Part shown: positions 16,032-27,457 of the stretch, one piece after another
How positions within the stretch are numbered: the first letter of the stretch is position 1
Layout: the number at the start of each line of letters is the position of its first letter
Sequence record: PZ445417.1
DNA: 44,550 bases
Strand: one strand, 5' to 3'
From: a phage
The notes under the pieces: generated by a model
What the model saw: only the letters and a program-made list of their open reading frames with translations
Told to the model about the DNA's origin: nothing
The model's database searches: none
Translations under genes and position numbers: made by a program

Positions 16032-16636
16032 CCACGTTTAAATTGTACGGCGTCTTAGGACGTCGTTTCGGTAAAGTGCATAAGCTGGACTGCTTCACAC
16101 CGGGCGAGGGTATCACCGGCCTGTGCGTGAAGTTACCCGGCTTACAGGACTTTCTAATGTCGGCCCACCTGGACAACATGATGTTCAAAGTGCGCAAGGG
16201 CAATCACACCCTGACCGGCTACGATGAGCTGGGCGAGTTCCACGGCAATCGCGTTGTTACCATCGCACCGGTTATGACCGGTGCAAAGCGCGGACTAGGC
16301 CAATTACTGGCTGGCGTAGCCATCGTGGTGGCGTCGTTCTACACCGGCGGGCTTGCTACTGCCGCTTTTGGTGCTTCAGCCGCTACCGCTGCCGCTATTG
16401 GTACGGCAACGTTTTCGTTCGGGATGTCGATGGCGCTGGGTGGCGTTATGCAATTGCTGTCACCGCAGCCGAAAGGATTGCAAACACGGCAGGACGTGGA
16501 TAACAAGGCGTCGTATGCGTTCGGAGGGCCGGTAAACACGACCGCGCAGGGTACGGCACTTGGTGTATTATGGGGCGAGCGTGAGATCGGTGGCGCTATT
16601 ATTTCCGCCGGAATCGTAACCGAGGATTTGAACTAA
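16022..16636 (+). CDS. tail assembly protein I-like
   Basis: 204 aa, with a C-terminal Gly/Ala-rich hydrophobic segment. Lies between the K-like and J-like genes. Confidence 0.6.
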   Translation: MAMTTFKLYGVLGRRFGKVHKLDCFTPGEGITGLCVKLPGLQDFLMSAHLDNMMFKVRKGNHTLTGYDELGEFHGNRVVTIAPVMTGAKRGLGQLLAGVAIVVASFYTGGLATAAFGASAATAAAIGTATFSFGMSMALGGVMQLLSPQPKGLQTRQDVDNKASYAFGGPVNTTAQGTALGVLWGEREIGGAIISAGIVTEDLN

Positions 16637-19600
16637 TGACGATTATCTACGACGTCACGGGCCATAAAGGCGGCGGTGGTAAACAGCACACTCCGCAGGA
16701 AACGCCCGATAGCCTGCATTCGCAGGCTAAAGCCCGCATCTTGCTCGCACTGGGTGAAGGTGAGTTCGAGGGAATTCCGAGCAACAGCGAATTACGGCAG
16801 CGCGTTTATTTGGACGGCACACCGATCCAGAACTCCGACAGGTCGGAAAACTTCCCCGGCGCGCGCGTGGAGTTCCGCCCTGGCACACAGCACCAGAATG
16901 TGATCCACGGATTTTCAGCGGTAGAAAGCGAACAATCCGTCGGTGTAAAACTGGAAAACGGCAAGCCGTGGGTGCGCCAGATTAATGACACCAGTCTTGA
17001 CGCCGTGCGCATTCGAATCGGCATTCCGGCTTTGTACACCAACGAAGATAATGGCGACCTTGTGGGCGGGCGAGTAAACTACAAAATCGTTGTATATACC
17101 GATAACGCAAATCCGCGTGAATTCAAGTTCGCTGCCGTTGGTAAAACAATGTCGCTGTATGAGCGGGACCACCGCATCGAGCTACCGTCGAACGTGAACA
17201 CCGGCTGGCGCGTGGAAGTTCACCGCACAACGGCAGATTCCACATCGGCGAAAGTGGTGAACGATATCCAGGTACAATCCATCACTGAGATTATCGACGC
17301 CCGCCTGCGCTACCCGCTAACAGCGCTGTTGTTCGTTGAGTTCGACGCTAAAGCGTTCCAGAACATCCCGCGCGTATCCATTAAGTGCAAAGGACGAAAA
17401 GTTCTAATCCCGAACAACTACGACCCGATTAATCATACATATTCGGGCGACTGGGACGGGACGTTTAAACGCGCATGGACGGATAACCCTGCGTGGCACT
17501 GGTACGATATTTGTATTACTGAACGCTTCGGCCTCGGTCGCCGGATCAAACCGCAAATGCTGAACCGGTACGCGCTCTACCAGATTGCGCAGCGCTGCGA
17601 TCAGTTGGTCAGCGACGGCAACGGTGGTCGAGAAATCCGCTTTAAGAATGATATGTACATTCAGTCACAGACAGATGCCTGGACCGTGCTTAAGGATTTA
17701 GCAGCCATCTTTGCTGGTATGACCTGGTGGGGAAACCAGATGTTGAATATCGTCAGTGACCAGCCGGTCGCAGCGGTATCGCACACTATCACCAACGCCT
17801 CGGTTATTGATGGGCGATTCGACTACGCATCGGGTAGCCAGAAAACTCGCTATTCCACGTTCGCGGTAGCATACGGCAACCCGAAAAACCACTACGATGA
17901 TGCCATCGCAACGGGGCAACGTGTCGAACTGGTACGCCGCCATAAGATTAACCGTCTAGACATCACGGCGATCGGCTGTACGCGTGAATCAGAAGCGCAA
18001 CGCCGCGGGCACTGGGCGCTAATCTCCAACCAGCTTGACCAGCAAGTTAGCTTCAAGGTTGGCATGGAAGGACTATTCTTTATTCCTGGTAGCGTAGTCG
18101 CGATCGCAGATACAAACATTTCTGGCGGCTTCGAGACCCGAGGCGGTCGCCTGTTGTCAGATCCTGGTACGCGGACTGTGCTGAATACAGACAGCGAAAT
18201 CACGTTCCGCCCAGGTGATAAATTCCTGGTACGCACCGATAGCGGCAATGTGGAGACCCGCGAGATCGCCAGCGTTAACGGCAACAAGGTAACGCTAAAA
18301 ACCGCGCTGGACTCCGACCCTATCCCAGATCAACCGTTTTGCGTTGATGGCGATGATATCCAGTTGCAGAAGTTCCGAATCACCGACCTGGAATATGACG
18401 ACTCTACCAGCACTTTTTCAGTGCGCGGGATCGAGTACAACGATAGCAAATATGATGCCGTTGATAATGGCGCTCGCCTTGACCCGGGCATCTTCACGCA
18501 AGTGCCTGACGGCGTAATGAAGGGGCCGGAATCCGTGACTATCACCCCGTCGCAGATTTCATCACAAGGCCAGCTAATCACCAACGTGGATATTGTTTTC
18601 CCGCCGGTGAAGGATGCTGTGGTGTATGAAATCCAGTGGCGACGCACCAGCTTGCAGAATATGGCGATCCAGTGGGGTAACGACTGGGTGAACATCCCAC
18701 GCACGGCATCGAACGGCGCGCACATCCCGAACGTGTTTTCCGGAAACTATCAAGCACGCGTTCGCGCGATTGGTATGGGCGAGATTTCATCCCCGTGGGT
18801 GTCGTCTGCCATCACGCCGGTGGAAGGGCGTCTCGGCGGTCTTAACGCGCCAATCATCACCAACGCGATTTCGGGCCTCCACCAGATTTTGTGGAAATGG
18901 AACCACAACAACGCCGCGACGGATATTTCATACACCGAGCTTGAAGTGCGCAAGACTGGTGAAACGGAGTGGGAGTTCTTAACCAACGTCCCATATCCTG
19001 GGTCGGAGTACGCGCAAACGTCGCTGGAGTTTGGCATTTACCAGCAGTTGCGCGCCCGTGTAGCGGATAAAATCGGCAACCTGTCGGACTGGTCAGCCCC
19101 GTTTGAAGGCCAGGTGAGTGACGAAGTCGACGAGTACATGAAGGGGCTTGATGACGCGTTCTTGACTTCCGAGGATGGAAAACACTTCCAGGAAGCGATC
19201 GACACCATGCCGCAAGGTATCTACGAGGCCATGCTCACCGACGCACAGCAATTGTTTAACGCCCGCGCCGAATATAAAGGGATTTATGCAGAAATCAAGG
19301 TGGCGTATAACGTGGCGGTGGATGCTAACGAGGCCGTGGCGCAACTGGAGACGTTGATCGGCACGCGCCTTGACGATGCGGAAGCGTCAATCCACACGTT
19401 GCAGACCGCGCAAAGCACACACGAACAAGCGTTCGCCCAGTACCAGCAAACTGTAGCCGCTAAGTTCGGGGAGCAGGAAGCTGCCATCCAGCAGGTACAA
19501 ACGGCAACGGCAGACGTAGCTGGCGCGCTGGCGGAGTACAAAACGCAGGTCGCAGCACAGTTCGACCAGCAGTCCGCCGCTATTGAGCAAAAGATGACGT

Positions 19601-20055
19601 CTTCGTTTAACCATGCAGGTGGTAACGCCACGTACAGCCTTAAGGCGGGCGTGACGTATAACGGGACTTACTATGATGCTGGTATGCAGCTTTCCGTCGT
19701 GGCGGAAGGTGGCGCGGTTAAATCCCGCATCGCGTTCAAGGCGGACCAGTTTTACATCATGCACCCGTCGAATGGGTCGCTTACGTCCGCGTTTATCGTT
19801 GACGGGGGGCAGGTGTACATTGACACGGCACGCATCAAGGATGCGACTATCAACTTCGCGCAGATCACGGACACGCTTCAGTCGAATAACTACGACGGCA
19901 GCACGCGCGGATGGCGCTTAGGGAAAGACGGAACGTTTATCAACCTGGGAACCGGCAACGGCGGCGCGATGAAACAGACGAACACGCAAATCAGCGTCAG
20001 GGATGGAAACGGCGTTCTCCGCGTGCAGATTGGTGAAATCACGGGTAGTTGGTAG
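16636..20055 (+). CDS. central tail fibre / host specificity protein (lambda gpJ-like)
   Basis: 1139 aa; the ATG overlaps the previous stop (TAATG). Largest ORF of the tail module. Domain content (fibronectin III-like repeats) is recalled, not searched. Confidence 0.8.
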   Translation: MTIIYDVTGHKGGGGKQHTPQETPDSLHSQAKARILLALGEGEFEGIPSNSELRQRVYLDGTPIQNSDRSENFPGARVEFRPGTQHQNVIHGFSAVESEQSVGVKLENGKPWVRQINDTSLDAVRIRIGIPALYTNEDNGDLVGGRVNYKIVVYTDNANPREFKFAAVGKTMSLYERDHRIELPSNVNTGWRVEVHRTTADSTSAKVVNDIQVQSITEIIDARLRYPLTALLFVEFDAKAFQNIPRVSIKCKGRKVLIPNNYDPINHTYSGDWDGTFKRAWTDNPAWHWYDICITERFGLGRRIKPQMLNRYALYQIAQRCDQLVSDGNGGREIRFKNDMYIQSQTDAWTVLKDLAAIFAGMTWWGNQMLNIVSDQPVAAVSHTITNASVIDGRFDYASGSQKTRYSTFAVAYGNPKNHYDDAIATGQRVELVRRHKINRLDITAIGCTRESEAQRRGHWALISNQLDQQVSFKVGMEGLFFIPGSVVAIADTNISGGFETRGGRLLSDPGTRTVLNTDSEITFRPGDKFLVRTDSGNVETREIASVNGNKVTLKTALDSDPIPDQPFCVDGDDIQLQKFRITDLEYDDSTSTFSVRGIEYNDSKYDAVDNGARLDPGIFTQVPDGVMKGPESVTITPSQISSQGQLITNVDIVFPPVKDAVVYEIQWRRTSLQNMAIQWGNDWVNIPRTASNGAHIPNVFSGNYQARVRAIGMGEISSPWVSSAITPVEGRLGGLNAPIITNAISGLHQILWKWNHNNAATDISYTELEVRKTGETEWEFLTNVPYPGSEYAQTSLEFGIYQQLRARVADKIGNLSDWSAPFEGQVSDEVDEYMKGLDDAFLTSEDGKHFQEAIDTMPQGIYEAMLTDAQQLFNARAEYKGIYAEIKVAYNVAVDANEAVAQLETLIGTRLDDAEASIHTLQTAQSTHEQAFAQYQQTVAAKFGEQEAAIQQVQTATADVAGALAEYKTQVAAQFDQQSAAIEQKMTSSFNHAGGNATYSLKAGVTYNGTYYDAGMQLSVVAEGGAVKSRIAFKADQFYIMHPSNGSLTSAFIVDGGQVYIDTARIKDATINFAQITDTLQSNNYDGSTRGWRLGKDGTFINLGTGNGGAMKQTNTQISVRDGNGVLRVQIGEITGSW

Positions 20056-20092: not shown

Positions 20093-20395
20093 ATGGCTTT
20101 TGGAGTAGAAACATGGGACGCGCAAGGGCGTCCGAACAACTACGGGATCAAGCCGGTGTCGGTTGTCGGAATTATTAAACTTGCACAAGGTCAAACATCG
20201 GGGTCGTGGTCGTTCACTATCCCGTCAGGGATGAAAGTCGGTTTTGCGGTTACGCTTGACGTGGGAGGCACTACTGTCGGTCGGGCTATCCGCGCCCGCG
20301 GGAACACAATAACCGTGTCGGCGGCAAACAGCGTGGGTATCGGTAACTACCCCGCGTCCGCGTGCGAGGTAGTAGTTTTTGTGGAGAAAGCATAG
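20093..20395 (+). CDS. hypothetical protein (100 aa), probably tail-associated
   Basis: ATG with GGAGG RBS, immediately after the J-like gene. Confidence 0.5.
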   Translation: MAFGVETWDAQGRPNNYGIKPVSVVGIIKLAQGQTSGSWSFTIPSGMKVGFAVTLDVGGTTVGRAIRARGNTITVSAANSVGIGNYPASACEVVVFVEKA

Positions 20396-20397
20396 AA

Positions 20398-21069
20398 ATG
20401 GCAAACTTCGGCGCGTTAATTGATAACAACAACGGCAACCCATTTGTCACGCCAAATTCAACGCCGTTCGCCCTCTACGCTAAGGTGTCGGCAAATTCAG
20501 TGGGGGCGAGCGCGGATTATAAGACCGCTAGTGGCGTCGTGAATATCCCCGCAAACTATCCGGCGATGGTGTTCATGCGGTCTAATAACCGGTGTGTACT
20601 CGCAGCGTCCCGGTCAGGAAACAGGATTTTATTTAGCGGAAGCATTCAGGGGCGGAATAACCCACATTTTACCGTCACGGCGTACGTATTCGCGCGATTC
20701 CCGCAGCCGCTGCCGAAATGGGGTTTTGCTATTTGGGACGCCAGCGGGACTTGCATACTAACCAACGAGAGCAAGGTGCTCACCGATTTAGTAACTGTTG
20801 GCAGCTTCGGTAATAACGGGGGGATCAACATAGACCAGACGCTGCCGGGGAAGTACGCGGTGTCCCCGATGCTAATGGGTGCTACTCTTATTCAGATATT
20901 CGTGCAAGGACAGCCGCAAATTATCCAGATCTCGGCAGGGACAGGAGCTTACGACAACGGAAGCGGCACTCGTATTAACGCAGTCGCTACGCAGGCGGGG
21001 TCGGGTAGCGTCGCAGGGTATCAAAACACCGGCGTTGCGCTGACGGCAATTAACGTGGATGGGATATGA
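20398..21069 (+). CDS. hypothetical protein (223 aa), probably tail-associated
   Basis: ATG at 20398 (GGAGA RBS). Gly/Asn/Ser-rich. Contains a segment (FAIWDASG) resembling the N-terminus of the upstream 100-aa protein (FGVETWDAQG). Confidence 0.5.
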   Translation: MANFGALIDNNNGNPFVTPNSTPFALYAKVSANSVGASADYKTASGVVNIPANYPAMVFMRSNNRCVLAASRSGNRILFSGSIQGRNNPHFTVTAYVFARFPQPLPKWGFAIWDASGTCILTNESKVLTDLVTVGSFGNNGGINIDQTLPGKYAVSPMLMGATLIQIFVQGQPQIIQISAGTGAYDNGSGTRINAVATQAGSGSVAGYQNTGVALTAINVDGI

Positions 21070-21071
21070 AA

Positions 21072-21092
21072 AAGCCCCTTTCGGGGCTTATT
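21072..21092. terminator. bidirectional terminator
   Basis: AAGCCCC-tttc-GGGGCTT hairpin with an A-run upstream and T-rich downstream, between convergent genes. Confidence 0.6.
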
Positions 21093-21306
21093 TGCAGGTT
21101 GTGCTTTTGAAGTGGTCAACTGACACATACTGGAAGTTAAACGGGTAGCCAGCCATGAGCATTTTGTGACCGCTAAAATCTGCGACCCCAAACACAGGGA
21201 CGGAATACTCCATGTCGCTATTCAGGTATGTCGCGTCGCAGATTTTAGACGGCATAGTGGAACAACCGGACAAAAGAACCGCACAAATCATAATTAAAGT
21301 TTTCAT
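21088..21306 (-). CDS. small lipoprotein, candidate superinfection-exclusion protein (Cor/Llp-like)
   Basis: 72 aa from the ATG at 21306. Signal peptide MKTLIMICAVLLSGC with lipobox LSGC and a Cys-containing mature part. Minus-strand gene between the J-like and fibre genes with its own promoter-like motif and terminator. Confidence 0.55.
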   Translation of the reverse strand: MKTLIMICAVLLSGCSTMPSKICDATYLNSDMEYSVPVFGVADFSGHKMLMAGYPFNFQYVSVDHFKSTTCK

Positions 21307-21337
21307 GGTATCATCCCCTATATTTGGTTGAGTTTTA

Positions 21338-21370
21338 GTATTACACCGCTCAACCAGGATTGCAACCAAT
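21338..21370 (-). promoter_or_regulatory. sigma70-like promoter embedded in an ATTGGTTGCAA motif
   Basis: On the minus strand: ATTGGTTGCAA (-35 TTGCAA), 16 bp, TAATAC, ending about 30 nt upstream of the lipoprotein start. Confidence 0.45.
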
Positions 21371-21386
21371 TTATGAGGATTTAGCT

Positions 21387-23537
21387 ATGGCAGCGGGTAC
21401 GCTATCTGTAACGAACAATAGCAAGGCGGTAGTAGGGGTCGGCACAACGTTTACCGCGTTTAAAGCTGGCGACTTCTTAACGCTGGTAGTAGGACAAGTC
21501 CCCTACACCGTGGCGATCGCGTCCGTCGAAAGCGACACGGCGCTTACTCTGGTTCTGCCGTTCGACGGCCCAACGGCAACCGGACTTGCGTGGGATGGCG
21601 TTAAGCGCGATACCATGTCACTGGCAACGATGGGCGTTACCGTACAGGCGCAAAAAGCATTGCGCTTGATGATTGCAGATGAAAACAACTGGCGTGCGAT
21701 CTTCGGCGACGCTGAAGAAATCACAGTGACGTTACCTAACGGGCAGGTTATGCAGGGCATGTCATGGGGCTATCTGTCGCAGCTAATGAAGCAGATCGAC
21801 CCTGTTGAGATGCGCAACCTGCAACAACAAGCAGCCGCATCGGAAGCAGCCGCGCAGGGCTTCCGCGATCAGGCCGAAGAATTGGCGCAAAGCATAAACC
21901 CAGATAACCTGCTAACAAAATCCGGCAACCTGGCAGGACTCACCGACAAAACGCAAGCCTGGCTTAACGTTCGCCCGGACGGGGCAACGCCACTGGCGGG
22001 CAACCCAGTAGGTGACTACGACGCCGCGACAAAGCGTTGGGTAGAGAACCTGATTAACACAGGTACTGTCGGGCCTACTATGAACGGCGTGATGAACTAC
22101 GGTGTAGGTCAGGTTACGCTGTGGCATTCTCGCGCGTTCATTCCGTCTTACGCAGTTGTTGCAGACGGCCAGTTGTTGTCACGTACAGCTTACCCTGAAC
22201 TGTGGGCACATGCTCAGATGCACAACCCTATCAACGACAGCGTATGGTTAACGGGTAGCGGCAATCGCGCTAAATTCTCAACAGGTGACGGTAGTACCAC
22301 GTTCCGTGTACCGGACCTCAACGGTGTTCAAGCTGGGTCGCCGGCGAATCTTTTCGGGCGCGGGTCCAACGGGTCCAGTAATTTGTTACCCGGTACAACC
22401 TTGGAAAGTGCGTTACCTGATATCGCAGGTGAAAGCCCTGCGACTCTGATTCGTTACGTCGACGCAGCTTCTGAGGCGTTTCAGGCTACGGAGGTAAGTA
22501 CTTACGGTTACGGCTCGGATACAAACAACGCGCCTATCAAGTGGAAGCAGCTGAGCTTCCGGGCCTCACGGTCATCTCCTGTTTACGGTCGCTACAATAC
22601 GACCGAGGTTGTACCGAACTCTTTCGTCGGCGTATGGATTATCCGCGCATCTGGTGGGTTCGTGGCGGCGAATACGTCGTGGAGCGTGATTAACGGTGAC
22701 GCGTCTCGTCCGGCAGACGGCACAACTGCTGATGGCGGTAATGTATGTTCGTTGTATAAGGTCAACAACGTCAATGAAGCTGAAGCTAGTTTCCGTGCCC
22801 GTGCCGAGATTGGTGGTAACTATTCTGCTCGTATTTCCGTAACGAACAGTACCACACAAAGAAGCGCGAATCTGGATTTTGACGAAACAGGGACACTAAC
22901 TATACCGAATACCATAGTTGTGAACTCTCCGCGCTCCGATTTTGTTGGTATTTTGAGACTCACTCGTGCCGCAACCACCAATATCGGGTTCCAACCGACT
23001 TATGCCGACGGTAGCGTGGTGCCCGATACTAAGGTTGGGGGGCACATATTCTTCGAAGCCTCGACAGAAGATTCAGGCAATATGGGTCGTATGTCTCTCT
23101 GGCGTCGTCGTAAAGACGGCAACCGTACTGGCGAAGTTGGTATTGCGTTCCCGGCAACAGCAGGAACATTAGCACTGCAAGGAACATCGGGCCGAGAGTA
23201 TAAGAAAGATATTGCCGATGCGGACGCAAGCGAAGCTATGGGCCGCATTAACAGCCAGCGCCTTGTTAACTTCGTGTATAAGGATGATGAGCAAGAGCGT
23301 GTTAGATTTGGTGTAATTGCCGAAGAAGCAGAGTTGATCGCTCCGCAATACATCAAACACAATCAGGTATCTTACGAGGACATTCTTGACGAAGAAGGGA
23401 ATAAGATTGGCGAGAAGACAAGGGACAGACCTTCCGTCGACGTCAACCCAATCGTTATGGATTTGATGGGGTGTGTTCAATATCTCAATAAGCAGGTGGA
23501 GGAGTTGAAGGCCGAGATCGCGGCGTTGAAGAAATAA
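21387..23537 (+). CDS. tail fibre with C-terminal intramolecular chaperone domain
   Basis: 716 aa from the ATG at 21387 (GAGGA RBS). The C-terminal ~120 aa (GREYKKDIADA...VRFGVIAEE...) resemble the self-cleaving chaperone domain of endosialidases and L-shaped fibres. Confidence 0.65.
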   Translation: MAAGTLSVTNNSKAVVGVGTTFTAFKAGDFLTLVVGQVPYTVAIASVESDTALTLVLPFDGPTATGLAWDGVKRDTMSLATMGVTVQAQKALRLMIADENNWRAIFGDAEEITVTLPNGQVMQGMSWGYLSQLMKQIDPVEMRNLQQQAAASEAAAQGFRDQAEELAQSINPDNLLTKSGNLAGLTDKTQAWLNVRPDGATPLAGNPVGDYDAATKRWVENLINTGTVGPTMNGVMNYGVGQVTLWHSRAFIPSYAVVADGQLLSRTAYPELWAHAQMHNPINDSVWLTGSGNRAKFSTGDGSTTFRVPDLNGVQAGSPANLFGRGSNGSSNLLPGTTLESALPDIAGESPATLIRYVDAASEAFQATEVSTYGYGSDTNNAPIKWKQLSFRASRSSPVYGRYNTTEVVPNSFVGVWIIRASGGFVAANTSWSVINGDASRPADGTTADGGNVCSLYKVNNVNEAEASFRARAEIGGNYSARISVTNSTTQRSANLDFDETGTLTIPNTIVVNSPRSDFVGILRLTRAATTNIGFQPTYADGSVVPDTKVGGHIFFEASTEDSGNMGRMSLWRRRKDGNRTGEVGIAFPATAGTLALQGTSGREYKKDIADADASEAMGRINSQRLVNFVYKDDEQERVRFGVIAEEAELIAPQYIKHNQVSYEDILDEEGNKIGEKTRDRPSVDVNPIVMDLMGCVQYLNKQVEELKAEIAALKK

Positions 23538-23543
23538 ATAAAA

Positions 23544-23568
23544 GGGGCCATGCGGCCCCTTTTTTTTT
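23544..23568. terminator. bidirectional rho-independent terminator
   Basis: GGGGCC-atgc-GGCCCC hairpin flanked by an A-run upstream and T9 downstream, between the fibre gene (+) and the end of the minus-strand operon. Confidence 0.75.
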
Positions 23569-24142
23569 AGTTTGAGTTTTCCCAATCCATTTTGCGCCGC
23601 ACCAGAGGACTTTCGTAATATTCCTTGCCTTCCACTTCCACTAAAGGCCAGTCATTAACAATCACGTATGGCTCCGCAATATCCTCGATCACGCCGTGCG
23701 CGTTATGCTGACCGAACGATACGCCAACAAGGATAACACCGGCAACGCGACGTGTCAGATATTCGCGAGCGCAACGTGCCTCAACCAGTCCACGACGGAT
23801 GCCGCTGGTGGCCTTAACTTCGCAGGTCCATACGGCATCGATCACATGCTCGCGGAAGTCTGGACCGGACTTAACCTTGCGTTTACCGACCATGATGATA
23901 TCGCCGCGGTCAATGGTATTGGCGCTGAACAGGCCCGTGCGCATAAGCAAGCCTTGCGGTATACAACTGCGCCCGCCTGCTTGCCCTTCAAGATACATGC
24001 CTGCAAACATCTCGCCCAGCACACCAACAAGACGGCTTTGCTTGCACGCGTCGGACTTTAAGCGCCACTGGTCAAACTCGATGCTTGCTATCATTGCCGC
24101 CAGGTGGAATTGTTTACCGGTTATTTCATATTCGCCGTACAT
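23567..24142 (-). CDS. hypothetical protein (191 aa), possible PD-(D/E)xK-type nuclease
   Basis: ATG with GAGGA RBS. Weak D...E-V-K pattern (IDAVWTCEVK). Last gene of the minus-strand operon. Confidence 0.45.
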   Translation of the reverse strand: MYGEYEITGKQFHLAAMIASIEFDQWRLKSDACKQSRLVGVLGEMFAGMYLEGQAGGRSCIPQGLLMRTGLFSANTIDRGDIIMVGKRKVKSGPDFREHVIDAVWTCEVKATSGIRRGLVEARCAREYLTRRVAGVILVGVSFGQHNAHGVIEDIAEPYVIVNDWPLVEVEGKEYYESPLVRRKMDWENSN

Positions 24143-24184
24143 CGTGTGGTCCTCATTGATGCGGGCCGAAGCCCGCGATTAGAA

Positions 24185-24676
24185 TTATTTAAGTGCGCCA
24201 GTCACCAGTGTTTTTTCCATGTTACGGAAATCTTCCTGCGTCATGAGGATTTTAGATCCGTCTTCGCCGGTGAGCACGACCATAGGCTGGACGTCTTGAT
24301 CTGCGATGCCGAAATTAGCGGCTTTGACCGTCTTGCCCGCGGAAGAATGCCAGCCTTTTAGGCTTTCAAATTGTTCTGCCGTTGTATCGATCTGAATCTC
24401 GTCATGCACAGTCATGTAAGACTCGCCAAGCAGGGCGGCATACGCCACCAGATCCACGATGTTATCATCCTGGTGCTTACGGTGCTGGCGCACCAGCTTC
24501 AGGCAGATCAGGAAGGTCCAGGCTTCTTGCTCGGTCAGGTCGCGACCGGTAAGCGCGTTAAACACGGCAGCGATTTGTTTAGCGCTGCGCTCCTCTTTCG
24601 CGTTGTCATAGCCGTTTTCTTTCCCGCGCTGTTCCATAGTGGTGGCGGCGTTTTTGCAGTATTCGTATGCTTTCAT
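24185..24676 (-). CDS. hypothetical protein (163 aa)
   Basis: Preferred start is the ATG at 24676 with an AAAGGA RBS; the alternative is the ATG at 24700. No recognisable motif. Confidence 0.5.
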   Translation of the reverse strand: MKAYEYCKNAATTMEQRGKENGYDNAKEERSAKQIAAVFNALTGRDLTEQEAWTFLICLKLVRQHRKHQDDNIVDLVAYAALLGESYMTVHDEIQIDTTAEQFESLKGWHSSAGKTVKAANFGIADQDVQPMVVLTGEDGSKILMTQEDFRNMEKTLVTGALK

Positions 24677-24717
24677 TGTGTGGTCCTTTCTAGGGGCCAT
24701 ATTGCCCCGACGCGTTA

Positions 24718-24747
24718 ACTATAGTGCAACCAACCTATTGGTTGCAA
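24718..24747 (-). promoter_or_regulatory. sigma70-like promoter within a 22-bp palindrome TGCAACCAA-ccta-TTGGTTGCA
   Basis: On the minus strand: TTGCAA, 18 bp, TATAGT. The palindrome spans 24725-24746. Confidence 0.45.
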
Positions 24748-25205
24748 GTAAATTTTGCAACGTTTATTGCGTAAATTTTCGGGACTAAATCGCTACACGC
24801 CCGACGAATTGCCGCGATGTTCTTCGGACAGTCTTCAATGATGACCAGTTCCGACACGTCCGCATAGCAGACCATTTTGAACACAGCGCACGCCTTAAAC
24901 TCTGGCGGCGGGGTGTCGTCCAACATATGGCGCATAAACAACCGGCCTACTGGGAAGACCTCTAGTTGTTCGGCGGTGGTCTCCCAGCATTCTCGCTGCC
25001 GGTTGGTCAGATACGCTATCTCGAAGCCTTGCTCTTTATACATGCGCAACAGCGGCAGCATATCCATGTTCAGGTCTTCGCGTACGTGCGCTTTGTGCCA
25101 CTTCGCCCAAAATGTTGATTTGGTTTTTATACCAGGAACCAGGTCGGCGCGTGCATCACTCGAACCATTAATTACGCCATCAAGATCACAAATCAGTAGT
25201 TTCAT
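24735..25205 (-). CDS. HAD-superfamily phosphatase (nucleotidase or 3'-phosphatase-like)
   Basis: 156 aa. HAD motif I LICDLDGV (DxDG) at the N-terminus. Confidence 0.6.
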   Translation of the reverse strand: MKLLICDLDGVINGSSDARADLVPGIKTKSTFWAKWHKAHVREDLNMDMLPLLRMYKEQGFEIAYLTNRQRECWETTAEQLEVFPVGRLFMRHMLDDTPPPEFKACAVFKMVCYADVSELVIIEDCPKNIAAIRRACSDLVPKIYAINVAKFTCNQ

Positions 25206-25426
25206 TTTAAGCTCTCAATAAGGGTGTATCGGACGCTGCGCGCGGAAAACTTGTTACACACAAGATGCCAACGGGCGGTTATGACAAGCCAGCCGGTAAG
25301 ATCCAGGCCCAGGATATATTCCGGACGTGACACGCGCTTCACACGATTGCGGCGTGGGTCGATGTTATAGTCTCTTTGCATTTGGTCTACTACCGCGGGG
25401 TCGCGGTCAACGATTAAGATATTCAA
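25202..25426 (-). CDS. small hypothetical protein (74 aa)
   Basis: Probable TTG start with a strong AAGGAGA RBS. Overlaps both neighbouring genes, suggesting translational coupling. Confidence 0.35.
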   Translation of the reverse strand: MNILIVDRDPAVVDQMQRDYNIDPRRNRVKRVSRPEYILGLDLTGWLVITARWHLVCNKFSARSVRYTLIESLK

Positions 25427-25892
25427 GGAGTTCTCCTTCGCTCATTATTTCAATTTGTGCGCTGCCGGTTGGTGGCGCTTCGTCAAATATTATCAATTGC
25501 TGGCACTTGTTATTGCTCGGACCGACTTCACCGGTGACAGCGTGTATAAATCTAATCCGCCAGTCCAGAAGAATTATCAGGTTTGCAGTCCTCCGGGCCA
25601 GCCTCGCCCACTTCGTCGACGTGTCCTGATTCAGTAGCATGACAGTCCGGCGACCGTGCGCTGCGCACTCGACCCACGGCAGCGGATCGGAATATGGCGG
25701 ATTGCACCACTTCCACCCTTTCAACTCTGCCCAGTCCACATCAAGCGCGCTGTGCTCTGCCGTGAAGTAACGCGGTAGCAGATGATTGGCATCGCTTGCC
25801 GCCATATCGTAACGGAATCGGTATTTCCGACGAAGCGGTTTAAATAACGCTGGCGGCGTGCGCCAGCTATCTTTTTGCTCACTCTTCTGCAT
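25407..25892 (-). CDS. DNA N6-adenine methyltransferase (phage Dam-like)
   Basis: 161 aa. N-terminal DSWRTPPALF and the catalytic NPPY motif (WCNPPYS) of amino-methyltransferases. Confidence 0.75.
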   Translation of the reverse strand: MQKSEQKDSWRTPPALFKPLRRKYRFRYDMAASDANHLLPRYFTAEHSALDVDWAELKGWKWCNPPYSDPLPWVECAAHGRRTVMLLNQDTSTKWARLARRTANLIILLDWRIRFIHAVTGEVGPSNNKCQQLIIFDEAPPTGSAQIEIMSEGELLEYLNR

Positions 25893-26343
25893 GGTCGGTG
25901 TCTATCGCATACAGGGCGATTTTATTGCCGGTCTTGAGAATGCGTTGCACGCGCTTTGACTCCACAGCACTAAGCGGGCGCGCGTCCGGGTAGAAGCTGC
26001 CATTTGTAGGGTTGCGCCACGCCATAAGCACCAAATCTTTACGGTCAACCTTAGACTGGCGACCCTTCGGTCGCACGTACTCCTCAGCACGTTTACAATG
26101 TTCACGCAAACCATCGGCAGTGATGCGGTTTAGTGCAACGCTGGTGGTGTATCCGGTGCGCTGCATAATCCCCATCAGTTCGAAAAGCAGTACGAAGCGC
26201 TCCGCTAGCTCCTGGCGCACTTTCTTCTCTCCTTCATATAGCGCCTGGTTGGTGTCCGCCAACGCGTTCGCACGTTCTGCCTGCTCGCGGGCTTCTAGGC
26301 ATTGCGCGGCCCAGTAATTTTTCTCTTCTTGTAAAATTTTCAT
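25879..26343 (-). CDS. hypothetical protein (154 aa)
   Basis: ATG with GGAGA RBS. Predicted coiled-coil N-terminus. Confidence 0.5.
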   Translation of the reverse strand: MKILQEEKNYWAAQCLEAREQAERANALADTNQALYEGEKKVRQELAERFVLLFELMGIMQRTGYTTSVALNRITADGLREHCKRAEEYVRPKGRQSKVDRKDLVLMAWRNPTNGSFYPDARPLSAVESKRVQRILKTGNKIALYAIDTDHAEE

Positions 26344-26359
26344 CGTGTTGTCTCCGGGT

Positions 26360-26388
26360 ATTAAAAAGGGCGTCCAAACCGGACACCC
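26360..26388 (-). terminator. terminator-like hairpin plus U5 overlapping the predicted start site of the next promoter
   Basis: Minus-strand RNA: GGGUGUCC-gguuu-GGACGCCC followed by UUUUU, immediately upstream of the RBS of 25879-26343. Confidence 0.45.
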
Positions 26389-26390
26389 TC

Positions 26391-26441
26391 AATATAATGC
26401 AACCAATATGATTATGCAACCAATATGATTATGCAACCAAT
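26391..26441 (-). promoter_or_regulatory. three tandem 17-bp repeats ATTGGTTGCATAATCAT with a promoter-like arrangement
   Basis: Three direct copies at 26398-26441. On the minus strand: TTGCAT (copy 2), 17 bp, TATATT. Confidence 0.5.
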
Positions 26442-26765
26442 TTACGCATAAAAGTTCGGGTCGCGTGCAACGTCTACCAGGTAAAGGTTGCTTATGCGGT
26501 TGCCGTAGTGCCCTGGAGTGCGCTGGCGGCACACAACGGCGAAGCCTGGGGGGATTGTATTGCCCGTCTCAATAATCCACGCCACGCGTGCGCCAGACAG
26601 TGTCTTGCCGTTGTATTCGATACGTGTTCCACCATCGGCGGTGTTGATGTTGCCAATCTTGCAGCCCGTGGACTTCAGACGGATGACTCCGGTTTTGCTG
26701 TCGTAGGTGAATAGCTGGTTAGTCATTGCGACCGAAAAATCGATGGTTTCGTATGTAGCGTTCAT
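26442..26765 (-). CDS. HNH-like (homing-endonuclease-related) domain protein, possibly degenerate
   Basis: 107 aa. The pattern GTRIEYNGKTLSGARVAWII...GHYGNRISNLYLVD resembles HNH_3/NUMOD4-type phage proteins but lacks clear catalytic His residues. Confidence 0.35.
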   Translation of the reverse strand: MNATYETIDFSVAMTNQLFTYDSKTGVIRLKSTGCKIGNINTADGGTRIEYNGKTLSGARVAWIIETGNTIPPGFAVVCRQRTPGHYGNRISNLYLVDVARDPNFYA

Positions 26766-27457
26766 TTTAAATTTTCCTCGTTAACCGCTATCGCGAAGCC
26801 GCGCGGAGTGAGCGACCGGATTAATTTTGTGCGGGCTGATTTGCCTCCGAGGCGACTATACTGTTTCGAGTACCCTTTTTCAACGAAAACAGGTTTCTTC
26901 TCTGGCATACGGAAACCGTTGCCGGTCCATAAGCAGGTCAGCTTCGGATATGAATCGCGGGCGTTGATGTATTCCGGGAAGAGCGGGTGTACGTCATCCT
27001 CCGGCAGATATCCCCCATACTCCCACGGATCAAACGAGTGGTCTGGTTTACGCCACTTGGTGGAAAGTACACTGCGCGGATTCTCAATCATATATGGCAC
27101 TTCAAAGAAGTCACCTAAGTAAGCGGCAATCTTCGCGGTGCGCACCGCCTTAAGCTGAAAGGCGGGGTCTCTAGCACGCTTGCGCGGGAAAGCAGGTGCA
27201 CCGCTCACTGCCAGATCCGTGCATGGAGGAAACGCATATATGATATCAGGCGTACCAAAATCGCCATTCATCGCGCGGTCTACAAAGTCCAGATCGATAA
27301 ACTCATTGCGATACCGGATTCCGCGGCCATAAATCCGGTAGTCAAGGTACGACCCGTGATCGGCTTCGGAGTAGTTGAAGCAATAGCACTTATGCCCCAT
27401 CTCGGCAGCACGCTCAATCATCAAGCCGCTGCCGTCAAACAATGACCAGATTATCAT
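26762..27457 (-). CDS. DNA cytosine-5 methyltransferase-like protein
   Basis: 231 aa. Motif I-like LFDGSGL, motif IV-like FPPCTDLAVSG (PC catalytic dipeptide) and motif VI-like ENP, in the canonical order. Short for a complete C5 methyltransferase. Confidence 0.5.
   Translation of the reverse strand: MIIWSLFDGSGLMIERAAEMGHKCYCFNYSEADHGSYLDYRIYGRGIRYRNEFIDLDFVDRAMNGDFGTPDIIYAFPPCTDLAVSGAPAFPRKRARDPAFQLKAVRTAKIAAYLGDFFEVPYMIENPRSVLSTKWRKPDHSFDPWEYGGYLPEDDVHPLFPEYINARDSYPKLTCLWTGNGFRMPEKKPVFVEKGYSKQYSRLGGKSARTKLIRSLTPRGFAIAVNEENLK

Follow-up and report, generated by a model that had tools for sequence, protein, structure and literature searches.

The 44,550-nt stretch of phage DNA in sequence record PZ445417.1, which we call the window, carries a small gene on the minus strand (21088..21306) between tail genes that run the other way. 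We believe that this gene is very likely cor, the superinfection-exclusion lipoprotein gene of a virulent Dhillonvirus coliphage, and that its product would inactivate the outer membrane protein FhuA from the periplasmic side by allostery of the Llp kind. Judged by its sequence, the gene is a true homologue of Cor, a gene type that is already known and annotated. The FhuA-binding and allostery steps would follow by homology. The window itself is a Dhillonvirus genome, and its first 25 kb are ~92% identical, at 93–96% coverage, to bob, Pubbukkers, CEC_Kaz_2018 and others. The phage is an unexceptional representative of this genus, which has been well sampled.

The gene and its place in the Cor family

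The open reading frame (ORF) is 219 nt long, with 72 codons followed by TAA, and the full translation of the prolipoprotein is MKTLIMICAVLLSGCSTMPSKICDATYLNSDMEYSVPVFGVADFSGHKMLMAGYPFNFQYVSVDHFKSTTCK. The predicted cleavage point divides this into MKTLIMICAVLLSGC and STMPSKICDATYLNSDMEYSVPVFGVADFSGHKMLMAGYPFNFQYVSVDHFKSTTCK. We read K2, then a hydrophobic core and then a lipobox, L12-S13-G14-C15, at 21273..21262. This has the look of a textbook lipoprotein signal peptide, with both lipidation and localisation as predictions. The residue at +2 after the lipidated Cys is Ser, not Asp, so by the standard +2 rule we would expect the outer membrane to be the destination of Cor. The mature protein has 58 amino acids (aa) and carries two further cysteines, C23 and C71.

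Over residues 2-71 the protein scores 56.6 bits (cutoff 31; E=1.9e-15) with NF047972, the NCBIfam equivalog model for "phage exclusion lipoprotein Cor". It also has a full-length match to PHROG 1119, "Cor superinfection exclusion protein" (E=5.1e-26). A Pfam search with the protein gave no match, and Pfam has no model for the Cor family. With tblastn against phage genomes we found 238 records. Dhillonvirus genes annotated as superinfection exclusion or Cor were 82–93% identical to the protein here, T1-like Cor proteins ~50% (T1 itself 49%), the Cor of HK542 and mEp 41% and that of phi80 36%. Orthologues in Dhillonvirus records already carry the annotation 'Cor superinfection exclusion protein'. 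A word-indexed protein search returned only six near-identical relatives, and a profile built from diverse Cor proteins returned 298.

Conservation was read from an alignment of 83 Cor family sequences. C15, C23, C71 and G53 are invariant in it and all are present here, and G14 is found in 79 of the 83. The rest of the AGYPF motif (A52, Y54, P55 and F56) is at least 96% conserved, V61 and F66 are nearly invariant, and the protein here has every one of these residues. When we compared the gene with seven Dhillonvirus orthologues, the ratio of nonsynonymous to synonymous substitution rates (dN/dS) was 0.05–0.31, with dS up to 0.9. The gene is under purifying selection. Because curated family profiles match it and because of these dN/dS values, we take it to be a real gene and not a chance ORF. 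The Shine-Dalgarno sequence AGGGGA is kept in 8 Dhillonviruses, with a single G/A change.

An initial annotation of this locus had described a reverse-strand 72-aa ORF with a signal peptide and lipobox, and the ORF, the lipobox LSGC and Cys15 bear this out. It had put the Cys-containing mature part at ~50 aa; the cysteines are there (C23 and C71), but the length is 58 aa. From position and architecture it had proposed a Cor- or Llp-like receptor-blocking lipoprotein, and this proposal is now supported by NF047972 and PHROG 1119, by the identities to the T1, phi80 and HK542 proteins and by the cassette context described below. Its statement that the sequence was not recognisably similar to these proteins did not hold, as the protein scores above the NF047972 cutoff and is 49% identical to T1 Cor. 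In the profile comparison with the Cor and Llp families that it had suggested, Cor was matched above the cutoff of NF047972 and Llp was only remotely related.

FhuA as the expected target

The order J / 100-aa gene / 223-aa gene / cor / lateral tail fibre is shared with YD-2008.s, bob, Pubbukkers, McMelon, ZCEC11, SSL-2009a and JLBYU37. The corresponding cassette of T1 is ST33-ST32-ST31-terminator-cor, with cor likewise on the opposite strand, and that of phi80 is gp21-22-23-cor-stf. HK542 and Erwinia phage 49 have the cassette in the order seen here. The reverse orientation of cor is normal in virulent carriers of the cassette, while in the temperate phages it runs in the direction of the tail genes.

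The 223-aa protein has 96% identity to its counterpart in phage bob, 54% to that in JLBYU37 and 47% to T1 ST31. Given the role described for this locus (PMC8594841, PMC13164509), it is a candidate for a FhuA-specific tail-tip or receptor-binding component. The BASEL papers treat the locus between J and cor as a receptor-binding module, and report that, in Drexlerviridae and Dhillonvirus, receptor specificity matches the allelic variants of the loci downstream of gpJ "without exception" (PMC8594841). In a 2026 analysis, the FhuA users were the only phages of the BASEL collection with the extended cor cassette; the analysis suggests an exclusion role for the genes between J and cor, for which it found no structural homologues (PMC13164509). 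Among Dhillonviruses, JLBYU37, JLBYU60 and Teewinot have been shown to depend on FhuA, and bob and Envy are FhuA-dependent by earlier work cited in the same paper (PMC10373560). Dhillonviruses that use other receptors carry other cassettes at the cor site: HK578 (LptD type) has homologues of Rtp44 and Rtp45, and PTXU06 (BtuB) has three unrelated small genes. We infer, and we consider the inference strong, that FhuA is the expected terminal receptor of this phage, because the 223-aa partner and its bob counterpart are 96% identical and because the cor cassette tracks FhuA use in the literature.

We also made two observations on the cassette genes themselves. The PHROG labels of the two genes between J and cor (20093-21069, plus strand) are 'outer membrane protein' (557) and 'membrane associated protein' (425). 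Between FhuA-dependent Dhillonviruses the 223-aa protein is far more diverged than Cor, with 54% against 82% identity to JLBYU37.

There is no structure of Cor in the PDB, where phmmer gives a single sequence match, the T5 Llp chain of the FhuA-Llp complex (8a60_B, E=0.02). An AlphaFold2 (AF2) model of the protein, made from the 83-sequence alignment, has four beta strands and a mean predicted local distance difference test score of 84.7, rising to ~95 over residues 21-70. In this model the mature domain has an Llp-like fold. A Foldseek search against the PDB placed T5 Llp (8a60_B) second by E-value, with a probability of 1.00, a target-normalised template-modelling (TM) score of 0.62 and a root-mean-square deviation (rmsd) of 2.9 A over 59 columns at 25% identity. 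Among the PDB matches listed, 8a60_B has the best target-normalised TM score and the highest identity, and its rmsd is among the lowest. Small Tudor- and chromo-like barrels also came up, which we set aside as generic small-barrel matches; only Llp joins the best TM score, a low rmsd, the top identity and sequence-profile support. When we searched BFVD with the model, a Dhillonvirus orthologue came first and the second and third matches were lipoproteins of T5-like phages.

Sequence profiles connect the two groups as well. T5 Llp itself falls in PHROG 1119 (E=1e-19), and Cor and Llp have been placed in one family (bioRxiv 10.64898/2026.03.26.714494). The authors of the FhuA-Llp structure noted that Llp shares ~20% identity with Cor, including the disulfide, and that Cor likely acts alike (PMC9586334). 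We would assign the gene, on these profile and sequence comparisons, to the Cor-Llp superfamily but outside the Llp subfamily.

The mechanism that we propose is as follows. The prolipoprotein would be exported, lipidated at Cys15 and cut by signal peptidase II, and the Lol pathway would, if the sequence rules apply (Ser at +2), insert it on the periplasmic side of the outer membrane, in the inner leaflet. There the 57 residues that follow Cys15, a beta-rich domain in which a disulfide probably links C23 and C71, would bind the periplasmic face of the TonB-dependent transporter FhuA. By analogy with T5 Llp, binding would drive an allosteric change in which the extracellular loops fold inward and the phage-binding site is destroyed. 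FhuA-dependent phages could then no longer superinfect, and progeny would not be wasted on the debris of lysed cells. Sparing progeny from adsorption to debris is a role that has been stated for T1 Cor and T5 Llp (PMC11990801).

Several points weigh against a FhuA-blocking, Llp-like Cor. In the papers that we consulted we found no experiment on any Dhillonvirus Cor, and the FhuA target is taken from relatives. Residue 31 is Asp here (codon 31, 21214-21216, minus strand) and Gly in 80 of the 83 family members, and residue 51 is Met (codon 51, 21154-21156, minus strand) where 74 of the 83 have Arg or Lys; all seven of the Dhillonvirus orthologues compared have G at 31 and R at 51. D31 and M51 could alter the affinity or specificity of Cor, and we regard a change in FhuA binding or target range through G31D and R51M as a possibility, though a weaker one than the socket idea set out below. 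Foldseek gives Llp a weak E-value (0.064), similar to those of the small Tudor- and chromo-like barrels. An hhalign comparison of the Cor profile with Llp gave a probability of 95%, but over the first 40 columns only, signal peptide included. The candidate promoter described in the next section scores 8/12, which is under the threshold of our consensus scan. Arguijo-Hernandez 2018, cited in PMC13164509, reportedly has, going by its title, Cor interacting with outer membrane proteins. Finally, the molecular mechanism of Cor proteins is described as not elucidated (bioRxiv 10.64898/2026.03.26.714494).

These last two points favour an alternative in which Cor excludes FhuA-dependent phages without an Llp-type periplasmic lock, either as part of a complex with other outer membrane proteins or through a block at DNA entry or TonB coupling instead of adsorption, and the identity between Cor and Llp, only about 20–25%, favours it too. 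However, we consider it unlikely. The predicted fold and the conserved disulfide pair match those of Llp (PMC9586334), a published AlphaFold 3 model puts T1-like Cor on the periplasmic face of FhuA with an interface predicted TM score (ipTM) of 0.84 (PMC13164509), and the Ser at +2 predicts an outer membrane lipoprotein that faces the periplasm.

There are also grounds for thinking of a target other than FhuA, in which case this Cor/Llp-superfamily lipoprotein would block some other outer membrane protein, for example BtuB or a different TonB-dependent transporter. The BtuB-dependent phage PTXU06 has a distant PHROG 1119 member (E=3e-7; 95% by hhalign) at the same site with an identical signal peptide, Cor-like proteins have been reported in BtuB users (PMC13164509), and the allele here deviates at the two conserved positions just named. 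We nevertheless think this very unlikely, since the mature domain is 82–93% identical to Cor of FhuA-dependent or FhuA-cassette Dhillonviruses and passes the Cor equivalog model, the 223-aa neighbour is 96% identical to that of the FhuA-dependent bob, and the mature domain and partner genes of PTXU06 are quite different.

We see practically no chance that this is a lysis lipoprotein (an Rz1-like outer membrane spanin, which we rejected) or a generic moron lipoprotein unrelated to the receptor: the protein is a small lipoprotein and has a faint match to PHROG 456, 'Rz-like spanin' (E=0.25, residues 3-20), but that match is confined to the signal peptide, cor is flanked by tail genes, the lysis genes of the close relative bob (holins and endolysin) are >20 kb away, no i-spanin partner overlaps cor, and the Cor family matches are strong.

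Transcription signals and the conserved socket

As we read the locus, cor would be a small transcription unit of its own, with a promoter and a hairpin terminator, running against the late tail operon. Because the unit is opposed to that operon, cor is probably expressed independently of the tail genes.

Terminator. The stop of the 223-aa gene (21069) is 18 nt from that of cor (21088), and the hairpin AAGCCCC-GAAA-GGGGCTT (21089..21072) takes up this whole gap. It folds at -13 kcal/mol (z = -2.75), and there are compensatory changes in the stem in Pubbukkers (A..T) and JLBYU37 (T..A). On the cor strand TTTTT follows the hairpin and the terminator scan calls it there. On the plus strand the tail is only ATTTG and the scan makes no call (window 21060-21100). 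The hairpin looks bidirectional in its geometry, with a fit to the consensus in the cor direction only. The bidirectional terminator of the initial annotation is thus convincing for cor, but the weak tract and missing call leave the other direction in doubt. Judging from the poor T tract, termination of the tail operon at the hairpin may be leaky. Late tail transcripts may continue past the hairpin, cross cor in antisense and reach the lateral tail-fibre gene, for which we found no separate consensus promoter in 21307-21386.

Promoter. Upstream of cor there is a TTGCAA (21365..21360) and, 17 nt further on, an extended -10 element, TGn-AATACT (21345..21337). The motif is almost invariant across the relatives, and only its free 'n' position changes. 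In T1, TTGCAA-17-TACAAT stands at the equivalent place before cor, and the phi80 annotation gives cor a promoter and a transcription start of its own. Conservation is higher in the 81-nt divergent intergenic region (90–98% identity) than in the coding sequence (83–93%). We believe that TTGCAA-17-TGnAATACT is the probable cor promoter, and its activity and timing would be as this reading implies. The promoter-like motif that had been noted earlier therefore stands as a conserved element, though it is weak by consensus.

We rejected three other candidates in this region. On the cor strand the promoter scan gave a single match (21314..21287), which overlaps the start codon; we did not accept it as the cor promoter, nor a plus-strand match of the scan inside cor. 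A 7-bp inverted repeat around the -10, GGTTGAG...CTCAACC, could be thought of as an operator or RNA hairpin. Its left arm varies in relatives and its right arm does not compensate, and its folding is no better than that of shuffled sequences (z = -1.33).

Socket. A stretch of 109 nt (window 21292-21400, minus strand), which spans the intergenic region together with the tail-fibre start and 15 nt at the beginning of cor, is at least 90% identical in nearly all of 108 phage records; two are just below 90%. Its carriers include cor-type (FhuA), LptD-type (Oekolampad, TheodorHerzl and SO-1) and BtuB-type (PTXU06) phages. We aligned HK578 separately, and there the similarity ends right after ATGAAAACTTTAAT; its Rtp45-like lipoprotein starts with MKTLI and then diverges. 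In PTXU06 the entire signal peptide of the lipoprotein, MKTLIMICAVLLSGC, is identical and the divergence begins exactly after the lipobox Cys. The mature domain that follows is a distant Cor/Llp relative (PHROG 1119 E=3e-7, hhalign 95%).

Since the upstream DNA and the start of the signal peptide are shared across receptor types, the promoter, the 5' untranslated region (5'UTR) and the signal-peptide start would belong to the backbone of these phages. We lean towards the idea that in Dhillonviruses the promoter, the 5'UTR and the first five codons are a fixed socket, into which the blocking domains for FhuA (Cor), LptD (Rtp45-like) and BtuB (a distant Cor/Llp relative) are swapped together with the matching receptor-binding genes. 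If this is true, one recombination junction of the receptor-switching cassette falls inside the coding sequence of a lipoprotein signal peptide.

Neighbouring genes and known systems

The positions of cor, its signals and the genes around it are given in Table 1.

Table 1. Features in and around the cor locus, in window coordinates.
Feature	Position	Strand	Basis
J-like central tail fibre / tail tip protein	16636..20055	+	ORF; annotated so in relatives
100-aa cassette protein (phi80 gp22 / T1 ST32 type)	20093..20395	+	PHROG 557, E=8e-33
223-aa cassette protein (phi80 gp23 / T1 ST31 type)	20398..21069	+	PHROG 425, E=1e-67
Hairpin terminator between the convergent cor and 223-aa genes	21072..21089	.	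Scan (minus strand), folding, compensatory changes, T1 terminators in same place
cor coding sequence, 72-aa prolipoprotein and stop	21088..21306	minus	ORF, NCBIfam NF047972, PHROG 1119, dN/dS
Mature domain after Cys15 (57 aa), with C23...C71 pair and AGYPF motif	21091..21261	minus	Conserved columns, AF2 model, Llp structural match
Predicted signal peptide (residues 1-14) and lipidated Cys15	21262..21306	minus	Read from sequence; G14/C15 conservation
Shine-Dalgarno AGGGGA	21314..21319	minus	Sequence; 7 nt before ATG
Promoter-like motif TTGCAA (-35), 17 nt, TGn-AATACT (extended -10)	21337..21365	minus	Conserved in relatives; sub-threshold
Lateral tail fibre, divergent from cor	21387..23537	+	PHROGs 6921 and 1980; relatives' annotations
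Phosphatase-like protein of polynucleotide-kinase PHROG	24735-25205	minus	PHROG
Dam-type N6-adenine methyltransferase	25407-25892	minus	
154-aa protein labelled 'DNA ligase'	25879-26343	minus	PHROG 10530
231-aa ORF at the position of relatives' Dcm-type methyltransferase	26762-27457	minus	

The lateral tail-fibre gene truly begins with the ATG at 21387, which is preceded by GAGGA. The gene is conserved with relatives only over its first ~500 nt, and the part concerned is 21880-23537 on the plus strand: DNA similarity stops near 21880 for most Dhillonviruses and near 22110 for bob and YD-2008.s. Different parts of the protein match several distinct tail-fibre PHROGs. This pattern fits a swapped distal part that recognises glycans. 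Downstream there is a block of minus-strand genes at 23567-27457, which holds the last four entries of the table; the label 'DNA ligase' on the 154-aa protein looks doubtful given its small size. Our scan of the whole window found no tRNA genes and no Rfam families.

Some database records with cor loci caught our attention. The 'Campylobacter phage' records A144, A15b and A136, with the host given as C. jejuni, have cor loci of the Dhillonvirus or T1 type at 89% or ~50% identity, and record PQ843332 (88.6 kb) holds the cor locus twice. These records look misassigned, chimeric or concatenated.

The gene can be annotated as cor (Cor superinfection-exclusion lipoprotein), and together with its two upstream genes it predicts FhuA as the terminal receptor of the phage. 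This is useful when choosing phages for a cocktail, where FhuA-dependent phages would exclude each other and share routes to resistance. Current knowledge is not challenged by these results, and the conserved socket of promoter and signal peptide is the only mildly new point. The socket could help in the engineering of matched receptor-binding and exclusion modules.

The known systems nearest to this gene differ from it to different degrees. The Rtp45-type LptD-blocking lipoproteins (HK578 gp24 and Rtp45) occupy the same slot in LptD-dependent Dhillonviruses, with an identical promoter, 5'UTR and first five codons (MKTLI), and their published mechanism on LptDE is steric (PMC12685063). However, their mature sequence is unrelated (PHROG 4281) and the gene is co-oriented with that for its receptor-binding protein. 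PHROG 4281 matches the Cor protein here at residues 2-17 only (E=0.17) and HK578 gp24 shares just MKTLI and the upstream DNA with it, and we rejected membership in this type.

T5 Llp (PDB 8A60 chain B) is like Cor in its PHROG, its size, its layout of lipobox-Cys...Cys...Cys and its predicted fold. Its gene likewise adjoins a receptor-binding gene, has its own promoter and belongs to a virulent phage, and Llp is the only member of the wider family with a solved mechanism (PMC9586334). It differs in being ~25% identical, absent from the Cor tblastn matches and paired with pb5 rather than with a gp22/gp23-type cassette. Unlike T5 llp, the gene here has no pb5-type gene next to it, and it does not belong directly to the Llp subfamily.

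The Cor proteins of the temperate phages phi80, N15, HK022 and HK542 are lysogenic conversion lipoproteins of the same family, with 36–41% identity and the gene order J/gp22/gp23/cor/stf. The annotation of phi80 cor marks a signal peptide and carries the remark "blocks TonB-dependent outer membrane FhuA receptor". In these phages cor is on the strand of the tail genes and is annotated as a moron, and the protein has a 3-residue insertion (KQxP) before the first mature Cys.

T1 Cor (ST30, YP_003915) is closer, at 49% identity. It is a lipoprotein with the same Cys pattern, its gene is convergent with ST31 with a terminator between them and has TTGCAA 17 nt from the -10, and T1 is virulent too. 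The differences are that recombination genes, not a lateral tail fibre, lie upstream of cor and that the family is Drexlerviridae.

The Cor proteins of other Dhillonviruses (jat, YD-2008.s EpYD_16, bob_15, SSL-2009a orf27 and JLBYU37_19) are orthologues of the one here. All have 72 aa and 82–93% identity, and they are alike in position and orientation, promoter region and terminator hairpin. The copy here differs from them only as an allele: it reads CST where they have CA(D/N) after the cleavage site, and it has D31 for G and M51 for R.

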